A stretch of DNA of 49,640 nt. Source: a virus (lineage: Duplodnaviria > Heunggongvirae > Uroviricota > Caudoviricetes). Location: IMG/VR virus record IMGVR_UViG_2718218452_000011; one strand, written 5' to 3'. A program made the translations under genes and the position numbers. Positions within the stretch are counted from its first letter, which is position 1; the number at the start of each line of letters is the position of its first letter. The notes beneath the pieces were generated by a model. It had not been told where the DNA came from, did not search any database, and worked only from the letters and a program-made list of their open reading frames with translations. Below, in pieces: positions 24,769 through 49,640 of this stretch.

Positions 24769-26208
24769 TTGATGGCAGAGATCGAGATTACTGGCGGCCT
24801 CGGTTCAGCACTGATGCATATTCTTGAGGCTGAAGAAATTCAGCCGGGAACCGACATTGGCTATGAATTGTGTAAGCAGCTGTGGCAATTCCATCCTCTG
24901 GGCGGAAAACTTGTCGAAAAACCCATACTGATGGCGATGTGTAAGCCGCGCCAGTATAACGTGGAGACAGACCCTGACGAGAGGGTTGTGAGGCGTTTTC
25001 AGGAGGTATGGGAACGCATGAAGGTCAACGAGAAGATTAAAAATCTGTTTTTTCTGTCTCGTTGCTACGGTGCTGCAGCGATCGGCGTGGGCACCGACAG
25101 CGTTCCATGTCGTGAACCGCTTCCGACGTTCGGACTGACAGAAGATGACGTGTATATCAACGCGTGGGACCCGTTGAACGCTTCCGGTTCGATGGTGACT
25201 GACCAGAACCCCAACAGCCCGTTTTTCCAGGAAGCCAATAAAAAACTGAAGATTGGTGGGAAAGACTGGCATCCGTCACGCACACTGAAAATCTTCAACG
25301 GCACACCGATTTATCTGGAGTTTCAGAGTTCATCGTTCGGATTCACCGGACGTAGTGTGTTTCAGCGCGTTCTTTATTCCCTGAAATCCTATATCAACAC
25401 GATGGAGGCGAATGATCTCGTCAGCCAGAAGGCGGGCGTACTGGTAGCTAAAGTTGTGCAGTACGGTTCGAAACTTGACGGGATCATGGCTGCCGCCACG
25501 GGACGAAAAAGGGAAAACGTCAAAGAGGCAAAAAATAAAGGTGTGCTTAGTATCGGGAAGGATGAGGACGTTACCTCGCTAAATCTACAAAACATCGATG
25601 GTGCGCTAAACGCTGCACGCGACAATATTATTTCCGATATTGCGTCAGGGAGTGACGTTCCGGCGATCCTCATCAAAGAGGAAGCCTTTTCGAATGGTTT
25701 CGGTGAGGGGACCGAAGATTCGAAAGCCATCAGCCAGTATATCGATGGTGTACGCCAGCAGATTGAACCCGTGATGGATTATTTCGAACGCCTGGTGCAG
25801 TACATCGCCTGGAACGAGGAATTTTATCAGTCGCTGAAAAATGATTACCCGGACATCATAACTGATGACTATAAAACCACGTTTTACCAGTGGCGACGTG
25901 AATTTACCGCGACATGGCAGGAGCTGGTGGAGGAGTCGCCGGACAAACGCCGGGAAAGCGACAGTAAAGTGATTCAACAGGCGATAGCACTTTTCTCTGC
26001 CGTGTCGCCACAGGTTGATCCTGAAAACCGTGCCGCCGTCACTGAATGGCTGGCAAGCCTTGTTAATGCCACGCAAACCTATGGCGAAGCTCCACTCATC
26101 ATTGATGTGGACGCGCTGGCGAATTATGAACCACCGAAGCAGGAGACGCCTGATGGCAATTTCCAGCCGGGCGGTGAGGAAGAAGAAACGGATCAGGACG
26201 CTATATGA
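24769..26208 (+). CDS. Portal protein (479 aa), putative
   Basis: Size and position immediately after the terminase large subunit; acidic C-terminus. Confidence 0.6.
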   Translation: MMAEIEITGGLGSALMHILEAEEIQPGTDIGYELCKQLWQFHPLGGKLVEKPILMAMCKPRQYNVETDPDERVVRRFQEVWERMKVNEKIKNLFFLSRCYGAAAIGVGTDSVPCREPLPTFGLTEDDVYINAWDPLNASGSMVTDQNPNSPFFQEANKKLKIGGKDWHPSRTLKIFNGTPIYLEFQSSSFGFTGRSVFQRVLYSLKSYINTMEANDLVSQKAGVLVAKVVQYGSKLDGIMAAATGRKRENVKEAKNKGVLSIGKDEDVTSLNLQNIDGALNAARDNIISDIASGSDVPAILIKEEAFSNGFGEGTEDSKAISQYIDGVRQQIEPVMDYFERLVQYIAWNEEFYQSLKNDYPDIITDDYKTTFYQWRREFTATWQELVEESPDKRRESDSKVIQQAIALFSAVSPQVDPENRAAVTEWLASLVNATQTYGEAPLIIDVDALANYEPPKQETPDGNFQPGGEEEETDQDAI

Positions 26209-41570: not shown

Positions 41571-42731
41571 ATGGAAAATTTTGCAAATAAGTTAAAAATA
41601 CACACAGAGCATGTTGCAAAAATGGGGGTGTTTTGTACAACTGAAGAAACGACAAAACAAGCACTCATTATGCCATTACTAGATATTCTTGGTTTTACTC
41701 CGTATGATCCAAGAAAAGTCAAAGCTGAGTATAGTGCTGACTTCCCCGGGGTTAAGGCTAATGAACGGGTTGATTACGCTTTATTTTGTCATGATGTTCC
41801 TGTGATGTTCATTGAGGCGAAATCGTTTTCAGAACAAATTGATAATCACTGCCCACAGCTATCAAGATATTTTAATTCAACACCGGAAGTTACTATATCA
41901 GCCATTACAAATGGTGTTGAATGGCGTTTTTTTACGGATTTGAAACAAAAAAACATAATGGATTCAACGCCGTTTTTAAAAATAAGAATGGATTCTCTAA
42001 CTCACTCCGATATTACACAATTATTTCGTTTTCGTTATGATAAATTCAAACCAGAGGCTTTACGGACACTGGCTGAAGAAAGTGTTTATTTGAATTCATT
42101 TACTAAAACAATCAGTTCTAGTCTTCGTGAAGTTGATCTGGAGTTTGTTCGATATGTTGCTAGTCGTTCAAATATTGAGAGACAACTTAATCAGAGATTT
42201 CTTGAGTTCGTGACTCCATTAGTTAAACAGGCCGTTGAGCGCGCTGTTAGCGCAATGGTGGTTTCCGGGCTATCTACACAACCGGTAGAGCAAACTAAAG
42301 AAAATGATGCAACGGATACACAAGTTAATAACGCCATTGTTGATGAAGAAAACCCCAACATAATAACCACAGCCAAAGAATTGGAGCTATTTGAAAGGGT
42401 AAAACAAATCATACAAACAGAAGATAATATAGAATATAAAGATACTGAGTCATATTTTGGTGTGCTATTGAATGGTAAAACTAATAGATGGCTGTTAAGA
42501 TTTTATGATAAAAAATCTTCATTTATAACTTTACCTATTTCGCTTAGTGAAGTTCAGTTGAATGAAATAAGACGAGCTCGACTTGATACGGATGGTAAAA
42601 GGATACATATAACTAATCCGGAAGATATACTTCGCATATCTGGTTTGATTCTGGATTCATACGAGTATGTTAAAAATGATGATAATTTCCGCCGAGGGTC
42701 CAGAGTGAGCAGTTTAGAAGAGGTTGAATAA
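41571..42731 (+). CDS. HsdR-N/Mrr-like PD-(D/E)XK nuclease-domain protein with uncharacterised 240-aa C-terminal domain; candidate defence gene
   Basis: GGAGGAG RBS 6 nt before ATG 41571; motifs ..ERVDYALF..(16)..VMFIEAKS..Q..Y...TNGVEWRFF fit the type I R-subunit N-terminal nuclease fold; AT-rich, own promoter-like sequence and terminator; inserted between baseplate W-like and J-like genes. Confidence 0.6.
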   Translation: MENFANKLKIHTEHVAKMGVFCTTEETTKQALIMPLLDILGFTPYDPRKVKAEYSADFPGVKANERVDYALFCHDVPVMFIEAKSFSEQIDNHCPQLSRYFNSTPEVTISAITNGVEWRFFTDLKQKNIMDSTPFLKIRMDSLTHSDITQLFRFRYDKFKPEALRTLAEESVYLNSFTKTISSSLREVDLEFVRYVASRSNIERQLNQRFLEFVTPLVKQAVERAVSAMVVSGLSTQPVEQTKENDATDTQVNNAIVDEENPNIITTAKELELFERVKQIIQTEDNIEYKDTESYFGVLLNGKTNRWLLRFYDKKSSFITLPISLSEVQLNEIRRARLDTDGKRIHITNPEDILRISGLILDSYEYVKNDDNFRRGSRVSSLEEVE

Positions 42732-48163: not shown

Positions 48164-48732
48164 TGATGTCGGAGATTGCTGCTATCAGGAATGCACGGTA
48201 TCTGGAAAATGGCGCGGTTGACTGCGAGGTTTTGTTCAGTGACCTTCCGAATTTTCTCCCCTATACAGCAACCAGTACCGATTCTGCCGAAACAGGACGT
48301 CGGGTGTGGCAAGAACTACAAAGCGGGAGATGGGGTGAGATTACCCCGTTCGTCGTTACACCAGAACTGCTGGAGGCCGTAAAAGCAGCCAAACGTCAGG
48401 AAATAGAAGAATGGCGTACAGAGCAGGAGGCGCAGCCATTTATTTTTGAATATAACGGTCGCACCTGGAACGCTGGCCCCGACTCAATGGCTCGTCTTTA
48501 TCCGGCAGTAATGGCATCAAAGTCTGAAACAGCGCGAAAAACCATGGTATGGAGCGATGCGGAAAACCAGCAGGTGAAGCTGTCAATGCCGGAACTGGAA
48601 GAACTGGCAGCAGCAATGGCGCAGGCTGTTGTTGAACGCAATGACGAGATTTATCGCCGTCAGCGAGAGAAGAAAGAAGCGTTAGACACTCTGGAGGATT
48701 TAGATGCGATACGAGCATTTAATGTTGAGTAA
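48163..48732 (+). CDS. Tail fibre assembly protein (Tfa-like, 189 aa)
   Basis: ATGA-coupled to the Stf-like gene; sequence type typical of lambdoid Tfa (from memory). Confidence 0.65.
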   Translation: MMSEIAAIRNARYLENGAVDCEVLFSDLPNFLPYTATSTDSAETGRRVWQELQSGRWGEITPFVVTPELLEAVKAAKRQEIEEWRTEQEAQPFIFEYNGRTWNAGPDSMARLYPAVMASKSETARKTMVWSDAENQQVKLSMPELEELAAAMAQAVVERNDEIYRRQREKKEALDTLEDLDAIRAFNVE

Positions 48733-48904
48733 CGAATAGGTCGCAGTGAGTTGTTCTGGTATCTGAAGAATGAGGCTCCGGTTGCTGGCTGCAGTCGGAG
48801 GTTTATGATGTGTACTCTCACATTGTTGAAGAAATCAATTGCGCAATTGGAGAGCAGGAACGTAAGAAAACAAGAGAAAGTCTACAATCGCTTGTAGGGT
48901 GTCA

Positions 48905-48945
48905 CTTCTTGATTTTTGCATAAATTTTATGATAAAATCATGAAG
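48905..48945 (+). promoter_or_regulatory. Candidate sigma-70 promoter for the terminal cargo gene
   Basis: TTGATT..(about 18 bp)..TAAAAT in an AT-rich spacer; a perfect 14-bp palindrome CAATTGCGCAATTG lies about 60 bp upstream (about 48836..48849). Confidence 0.3.
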
Positions 48946-48968
48946 TAAAAGTGATGGGAGAAACTTTC

Positions 48969-49640
48969 ATGAATATGCCTCATTGTGTTCTGCATACAGG
49001 AATTGATTCGGATTTTGTACTTAGTAAACTGGGCTTTACAGAAAATGATATTCGCGATGCGTTAATGTCTGCTTTATACGAGCGACGCAAATCCAGTAAG
49101 CTCCACCCTAAAGTGGATGCTGGATTCCGCTTTTGGAGTGAGATGGTTGCCGCGCTTCGCCGTATTCTGATTGGTAAGGGTAACGGCTGGTCTTCTGAAG
49201 TAGTCAATCGCATGGAAATGGTCGTTAATTCAAGCAAAGGGGTTAATCTGATTATTACCTCAGGTGACGGACATACCGGGCGTCCTGATGGATTGCCTAA
49301 AACCAAAAATGCAAAGGGAGAGGCAACTCGCTCGATTGTTCACAACAATCCGGGTACATTTGATATGTTCCAAGCAGATACCTTACATTCAGGCAAAGCT
49401 GAGATCACGCCGATAGATAGCACCCGAACTTATATCGTTCTGTATTATTATGATGCGGCAAATAAAGAAATTCGCTGTGAGGTATCGTATCCGGTAGGGA
49501 TGGTGAATCAGGACGGATTTGCCAGAGTAAGCGCGTGGAGTGAGCGAATTATTTTAGCTCCTCTGCAATTTGAAGGTGCGGATATTTTCCCTGAACAGGA
49601 TTTTGATGATGACATATCAATTTCAGTTGAAAGCAAATGA
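48969..49640 (+). CDS. Hypothetical 224-aa protein of unknown function (cargo gene at the fibre-distal end)
   Basis: Track ORF 48951..49640; GGGAGA RBS before ATG 48969; AT-rich relative to the tail genes; no recognised domain. Stop codon coincides with the window end. Confidence 0.45.
   Translation: MNMPHCVLHTGIDSDFVLSKLGFTENDIRDALMSALYERRKSSKLHPKVDAGFRFWSEMVAALRRILIGKGNGWSSEVVNRMEMVVNSSKGVNLIITSGDGHTGRPDGLPKTKNAKGEATRSIVHNNPGTFDMFQADTLHSGKAEITPIDSTRTYIVLYYYDAANKEIRCEVSYPVGMVNQDGFARVSAWSERIILAPLQFEGADIFPEQDFDDDISISVESK

Follow-up and report, generated by a model that had tools for sequence, protein, structure and literature searches.

A probable RosmerTA toxin gene with a conserved promoter-spanning dyad at the right end of an Escherichia coli Rac-site prophage

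What does this prophage carry beyond its tail-fibre genes, and how might that cargo be controlled? We analysed a window of 49,640 nucleotides of caudoviral DNA (IMG/VR record IMGVR_UViG_2718218452_000011) in which the last Tfa-like gene (DUF4376; stop at 48732) is followed by a spacer and an open reading frame. The original prediction described this frame as an uncharacterised AT-rich cargo gene with its own promoter, a possible palindromic operator and perhaps a partner gene outside the window. We consider it likely (probability of about 0.85) that the frame is rmrT and encodes the toxin of a RosmerTA anti-phage toxin-antitoxin system carried as cargo by the Rac-site prophage of E. coli C7. 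The gene and its junction with the next one are as follows.

48969–49640, plus strand: rmrT, probable RosmerTA toxin gene (PADLOC, verified homologue, start comparison, AlphaFold)
49637–49640, plus strand: ATGA overlap, with ATG 49637–49639 as the rmrA start codon (E. coli C7 annotation and sequence)

The open reading frame is certainly a real gene. It spans 224 codons including the stop and encodes a soluble alpha/beta protein of 223 amino acids, one fewer than first counted; its TGA stop codon forms the final three bases of the window, as had been read. The GC content of the frame (43.6%) lies below that of the window (48.1%), the spacer being at 40.3%, so the label AT-rich is right in direction but the effect is mild. 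The position of ATG 48969 is the start in all 17 homologues compared. PGAP places the start at the equivalent of this ATG in strain PapRG and at 48954 in strain C7, and because the 17 homologues and the PapRG call agree, the C7 start is probably five codons too long. We dropped both 48954 and GTG 48951 in favour of ATG 48969 on the basis of homologue starts, PapRG and the upstream comparison.

The encoded protein matches the PADLOC RmrT profile PDLC03935 end to end (E 1.4e-59, profile positions 10–206 of 207) and a second RmrT profile more weakly (PDLC03932, E 5e-11). It shares 29% identity over almost its entire length (E 4e-19) with the verified RmrT of E. coli OLC-716, whose sequences we took from the supplement of Millman et al. 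(bioRxiv 10.1101/2022.05.11.491447). Aligning the RmrT profile with this verified protein by hhalign gave a probability of 97.9%. The PADLOC profiles and the verified homologue thus assign the protein to a recognised toxin family: the search with defence-system profiles that had been proposed yielded a name, and the gene is no longer without a known relative.

Searches of Pfam, NCBIfam and PHROGs with RmrT gave no meaningful match, and Pfam searched with 140 diverse family members returned three stray weak hits, none of them credible. A HMMER scan identified 1485 cluster representatives of the RmrT family (E ≤ 1e-3), nearly all 210–235 amino acids in length. The family comprises at least 1485 clusters at 50% identity and has neither a Pfam model nor a solved relative. 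Close homologues are rare, with 19 clusters in a set of 5.8 billion proteins, all from Enterobacterales.

E. coli C7 (NZ_CP010240.1) matches the window at 100% identity. In that genome rmrA begins at the window-terminal ATGA (position 49637), encodes 368 amino acids and extends 1107 bp past the window, which bears out the expectation that a partner gene would lie outside. The two genes are adjacent and in the same orientation, and form a toxin-first pair that is translationally coupled through the ATGA overlap. This overlap recurs in all 12 loci with a complete rmrA.

RmrA matches its best RmrA profile at E 6.6e-143, together with 13 further RmrA profiles. Pfam identifies Peptidase_M78 (E 4.6e-21) and HTH_3 (E 3.8e-10) domains, as in RosmerTA antitoxins. 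The HELAH motif is intact at residues 207–211, and few parts of the protein are as well conserved as the HTH region (residues 21–60). By these sequence matches, RmrA joins an Xre-type HTH domain to a Zn-metallopeptidase of the ImmA/IrrE type. Its identity to the verified OLC-716 RmrA is 44% over the full length (E 1e-106); matches to CapP (E 1.3e-19) and CapH (E 1e-5) fall on the peptidase region and the N-terminus, respectively.

About 55 bp 3′ of the rmrA stop, E. coli C7 has a strong intrinsic terminator made up of a 15-bp perfect hairpin and a U-run (dG -24.9 kcal/mol, z -6.3). Rfam searches of the spacer, the operon and the downstream region returned only sub-threshold hits, located on this terminator hairpin. 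We also noted that the public rmrA call in two Serratia marcescens loci (L007 and L009, 6750–7781) starts 72 nt past the rmrT stop and gives a 343-aa protein lacking the HTH domain. The frame in both loci is open from the ATGA overlap and yields a full 368-aa RmrA, the same as in locus L008; the public start is likely a miscall.

RosmerTA is already known. The OLC-716 system defends under its native promoter, and a deletion of its rmrA could not be transformed (10.1101/2022.05.11.491447). Like the C7 pair, it is a toxin-first two-gene operon whose antitoxin, of about 370 amino acids, has an N-terminal Xre HTH domain and a Zn-peptidase. The two toxins (about 220–240 amino acids) belong to the same family and share the blocks TxxHP, G..TG, P.T..KG, R.E.S.P and W..R. 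Inspection by eye of the OLC-716 construct also reveals an inverted repeat, ACCTCA-AA-TGAGGT, between -35-like and -10-like hexamers. However, the C7 pair belongs to a different subfamily: its best PADLOC profile, its candidate operator sequence and its HTH recognition region all differ, and it sits at the end of a Rac-site prophage.

A second RosmerTA system, RmrTA of Gordonia phage Kita, has an ImmA-protease antitoxin and confers narrow-spectrum defence (Ernits et al., 2023, PMC10440598). The Kita RmrT (node D5) is the sole RmrT with a studied mechanism; it depolarises the membrane and is predicted to contain transmembrane regions (PMC10440598). Both pairs are phage-borne RosmerTA, but C7 RmrT is a soluble alpha/beta protein of another family with a restriction-enzyme-like predicted fold. 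Membrane depolarisation, which the secondary literature attributes to RmrT, should not be assumed for the C7 protein. Our literature search found no mechanistic work on this RmrT toxin family.

An AlphaFold model of RmrT built on a 140-sequence alignment reached a pLDDT of 88.6 and a pTM of 0.83 (a shallow alignment gave pLDDT 69.6). It consists of N-terminal helices followed by two three-stranded meanders with helices between them. All structural matches with more than 125 aligned residues are PD-(D/E)xK restriction enzymes (ThaI, BglI, SfiI, SwaI, EcoRV). RecU (101 residues) and Hje, found by Foldseek, are weaker echoes; apart from Rep15 (123 residues), everything else aligned over short helical stretches. 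No PDB entry reached E ≤ 0.001 in Foldseek, and profile comparison of RmrT with restriction endonucleases gave no significant sequence match.

RmrT is 7–12% identical to EcoRV-type endonucleases (NaeI 1EV7, ThaI 3NDH, BglI 1DMU, SfiI 2EZV, SwaI 5TGQ, EcoRV 1EO3). It differs from these enzymes in having no identified canonical catalytic motif and no partner methyltransferase, the antitoxin standing in that role. Residues G52, R64, W74, G99, T103, G104, P110, K116, G117, N127, R169, E171, S173, P175, W190 and R193 are invariant or nearly so across the RmrT family, and D100, D162 and E167 are conserved at 70–81%. Judged from the secondary structure of the model, the invariant residues (G99, T103, G104, K116, G117, N127, R169, E171 and R193) lie off the canonical D...(D/E)xK pattern on predicted strands 82–87 and 92–98.

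Speculatively, the model suggests that RmrT is a soluble protein with a PD-(D/E)xK-like fold that may target nucleic acid rather than membrane. A nucleic-acid target is our preferred guess, a tentative one that falls short of even odds, because the long structural matches are restriction enzymes despite the lack of a significant profile or Foldseek match. It is close to an even bet that RmrT is instead a non-nuclease, in which the fold serves as a scaffold to block an essential host factor or to modify a nucleotide or protein. That reading must contend with the fact that the sole long structural matches are to DNA-cleaving enzymes, and with the conserved D100, K116, D162, E167, R169, E171 and R193, which would suit a metal-dependent phosphodiesterase.

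One further observation bears on the conserved TxxHP block. The clpP-dependent E101 toxin-antitoxin pair yielded the suppressor mutation T46S (Rousset et al.), and the conserved threonine of TxxHP is T46 in the verified 239-aa RmrT. We treat this link between RmrT and the E101 pair as a lead only.

The window is a whole Rac-site prophage, with intR, xisR, ralR, recET, kilR, ydaS/T and the genes from terminase to tail fibres. A 26-bp direct repeat, TTGTTCAGGTTGTATTGTTCTTTCTT, forms the att core; one copy lies at the 5′ end of ttcA, and downstream inspection located the second 328 bp past the rmrA stop. This makes rmrTA the final pair of genes within the element. The stretch occurs in 7 of 5426 complete E. 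coli genomes, always at the same site, and the identical RmrT protein is found on hundreds of E. coli and Salmonella draft contigs, everywhere labelled "hypothetical".

The expectation that the position after the tail-fibre genes is a cargo hotspot held up, in that the slot is variable. In the sister Rac-site prophage of E. coli GmM062 (NZ_CM183653.1) it is filled by a gene for a 317-aa hypothetical protein of no known family, located on the opposite strand between the DUF4376 gene and uspF (locus L020, 5132–6085, minus strand). Another relative prophage, at a different site, has nothing in that slot. The 317-aa protein has no Pfam match and no PADLOC match; the gene is an uncharacterised alternative cargo and arguably more novel than rmrTA.

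Several other features of the prophage deserve mention. An IS3-family transposase gene (28043–29256, minus strand) is inserted in the DUF2213 head-module gene and is followed by a truncated NUDIX fragment; the prophage is probably defective and may be decaying, with rmrTA itself intact. A 386-aa "type I restriction endonuclease" (41571–42731, plus strand) is encoded in the baseplate module, immediately 5′ of the baseplate J gene. This protein has only an HSDR_N/HSDR_N_2 N-terminal domain, has no PADLOC hit and is conserved in sister prophages; its gene may be additional cargo or a moron, or else may encode a structural protein with a nuclease fold. The 478-aa gene directly 3′ of the large terminase gene (24772–26208, plus strand) is labelled "anti-CBASS protein Acb1 family" by PGAP; its position suggests a portal protein, and the Acb1 label may be an annotation artefact. 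Outside the window, the stretch from the rmrA terminator to the attR core holds two copies of the motif AAATGGGGCAA(A), and a further copy lies beside attL (L001 11755–11805, L019 2558–2569). These repeats are candidate arm-type binding sites of the IntR integrase.

The same gene pair occurs in unrelated settings. In Yersinia, rmrTA lies in an AlpA/YfjJ island; in Serratia, it lies in the early region of lambdoid prophages, between the replication genes and Q. Additional copies were found in Kluyvera, Atlantibacter, Pragia, Enterobacter, Enterobacillus and one Pantoea MAG. Homology to structural or tail-fibre proteins did not emerge from our searches, and a structural or tail-fibre role is ruled out because rmrTA occurs away from tail genes, in the Yersinia AlpA-type island and the Serratia early region. 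The Yersinia copies (loci L004, L005 and L006) lie 1.2 kb upstream of an 838-aa SIR2_2 plus nSTAND NTPase gene (L004 8961–11477, plus strand) in an IS-flanked island, which looks like a small defence island.

We think it very unlikely that rmrTA is mainly an addiction module that retains the prophage in the chromosome and has no real defence role. Such a function would fit the classic type II toxin-antitoxin layout with overlapping genes and the consistent location of rmrTA on mobile elements. It would also fit what is known of essentiality: rmrA is essential in three Pectobacteriaceae strains where it is present, and cells with Rosmer-type toxins cannot do without clpX or clpP, a hint that such toxins are restrained in part by Clp proteolysis. 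However, the homologous OLC-716 pair (44%/29% identity), expressed from its native promoter, protects E. coli from phages, and the Yersinia copy adjoins a defence-type gene. Addiction and defence roles are, moreover, mutually compatible.

The remaining question is how the RosmerTA pair is controlled. The 236-bp spacer, the 14-bp palindrome, the TTGATT/TAAAAT pair and the good ribosome-binding site of the original prediction are all present in the sequence, and the spacer contains the following features.

48733–48968: spacer between the Tfa-like gene and rmrT, 236 bp
48733–48903, plus strand: left portion of the spacer, restricted to the E. coli Rac-site lineage and outside the mobile rmrTA module (locus comparison)
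48776–48800: weak terminator-like hairpin 3′ of the Tfa gene
48836–48849: perfect 14-bp palindrome CAATTGCGCAATTG, made of two CAATTG hexamers end to end, with no supported function
48904–48946: 43-bp dyad ACTTCTTGATTT-nnn-CATAA-nnn-TTATG-nnn-AAATCATGAAGT, candidate operator (inverted-repeat search and comparison)
48909–48938, plus strand: predicted sigma-70-type promoter (-35 TTGATT at 48909–48914, 18-bp gap, TG at 48930–48931, -10 TAAAAT at 48933–48938)
48956–48960, plus strand: ribosome-binding site GGGAG, 8 nt 5′ of the ATG (sequence; GGAG/GAGG equivalents at the same distance in other loci)

Positions 48733–48903 are unrelated to the upstream sequence in Yersinia, Serratia, Kluyvera and other genera. 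Among three E. coli strains this part carries only 2 substitutions, and the whole 236-bp spacer carries 3. A 48-aa open reading frame within it (48751–48897) has no counterpart in the other loci. The upstream alignment shows an abrupt onset of homology about 65 nt 5′ of the start codon.

A scan for promoters found the TTGATT/TAAAAT pair with 9 of 12 matches and an extended -10 TG. We found 8 promoter-like sites in the 2.8 kb scanned, against 5.0 ± 2.4 expected, so the match alone is unremarkable. It becomes convincing through conservation across loci: the -35 is invariant, and the TG is supplied in all loci by the conserved inner TTATG of the dyad. The claim that this cargo gene has its own promoter after the Tfa genes thus gains support from sequence comparison.

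We examined 18 loci, comprising 17 that were fetched (from at least eight Enterobacterales genera) and a refetched copy of the window. All 18 contain the dyad in a single copy, always 21–33 nt 5′ of the rmrT start, with the general form ACTTCTTGATTT-nnn-CAT(A/T)A-nnn-TTATG-nnn-AAATCATGAAGT, that is, with outer halves spaced N19. Among 13 distinct sequences, 33 of the 43 columns are invariant, and mean column identity is 0.90, compared with 0.54 and 0.48 in the flanks. The dyad is nearly invariant across loci in which RmrT has diverged to 52–54% identity. The half-site has no other occurrence in the window. rmrTA and its promoter dyad move as one unit between unrelated mobile elements.

The -35 hexamer falls within the left outer half-site of the dyad, and the -10 overlaps the right one. 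The three variable triplets, as read from the alignment, show no mutual complementarity and no covariation. We therefore ruled out an RNA or DNA hairpin, and selection appears to act on the half-sites as protein contacts. From this pattern, the 43-bp dyad is probably the operator of the RmrA HTH domain, an arrangement that would make the operon autorepressed.

We give next to no credence to an orphan uncharacterised cargo gene regulated through the CAATTGCGCAATTG palindrome. In favour of that reading, the spacer holds a perfect palindrome that three E. coli strains share, but these strains are so nearly identical over the whole spacer that its conservation there is uninformative; the gene, moreover, has a clear family (RmrT) and a partner (rmrA). 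The palindrome is the sole perfect 14-mer of its kind in the window, against 3.2 ± 1.9 expected from shuffles and thus within chance, and its distance to the -35 downstream is 59 bp. It is confined to the E. coli Rac-site loci, being present in none of the 14 rmrTA loci from other genera. Its chance-level occurrence and its absence from these loci rule it out as an operator, the role first proposed for it; the conserved element is the 43-bp dyad instead.

Domain resemblances to other systems point to a possible mode of action for the RosmerTA pair. In ImmR/ImmA (ICEBs1), DdrO/IrrE (Deinococcus) and CapH/CapP (CBASS), an Xre HTH repressor is cleaved by an M78/COG2856 metallopeptidase upon a stress signal. 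RmrA likewise combines an HTH with an M78 peptidase whose HExxH is intact. RmrA differs from these systems in that a single 368-aa chain carries both domains, where CapH/CapP and ImmR/ImmA have a separate repressor and a separate M78 protease, and in that the gene under control is a toxin. The resemblance to CapH/CapP and ImmR/ImmA may therefore indicate how RmrA works and does not denote membership. RmrA has been described as an ImmA-protease antitoxin hub, and cleavage of its HTH has been proposed (PMC10440598).

We infer toxicity, neutralisation, defence and operator binding for rmrTA of C7, and propose the following mechanism. The operon would be transcribed from the TTGATT/TG-n-TAAAAT promoter. 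The HTH domain of RmrA would bind the four-part 43-bp dyad that encloses this promoter and repress the operon, and RmrA would additionally neutralise RmrT. Phage infection would remove or inactivate RmrA, either because the peptidase cleaves the HTH in cis or in trans (cf. ImmA/ImmR, IrrE/DdrO, CapP/CapH) or because synthesis is shut off. Freed RmrT would then halt growth, so that the infection is aborted and the lysogen population is protected.

A bolder, joint version of this mechanism strikes us as unlikely. It holds that the RmrT family is a divergent branch of the restriction-endonuclease fold whose active site has been relocated to K116/E171/R193, and that RmrA is a single-chain "ImmR-ImmA" that cuts its own HTH. 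If the single-chain part were true, the trigger of defence would be transcriptional derepression with a burst of toxin, as opposed to plain antitoxin decay.

Our results leave the RosmerTA category unchanged. The rmrT subfamily already has its own PADLOC profile, and the locus is ordinary prophage-end defence cargo; the conserved candidate operator and the model with its restriction-enzyme-like fold add useful detail, and our literature search found neither described. The "hypothetical protein" copies in E. coli and Salmonella records can now be named as RosmerTA toxin. Where a prophage or window boundary is set at the end of rmrT, a two-gene system is split, and a defence-finder would have recognised RosmerTA in a window extended by 1.1 kb. 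The 43-bp promoter-operator dyad, the confident toxin model and the invariant residues provide handles for experiments on RosmerTA mechanism.
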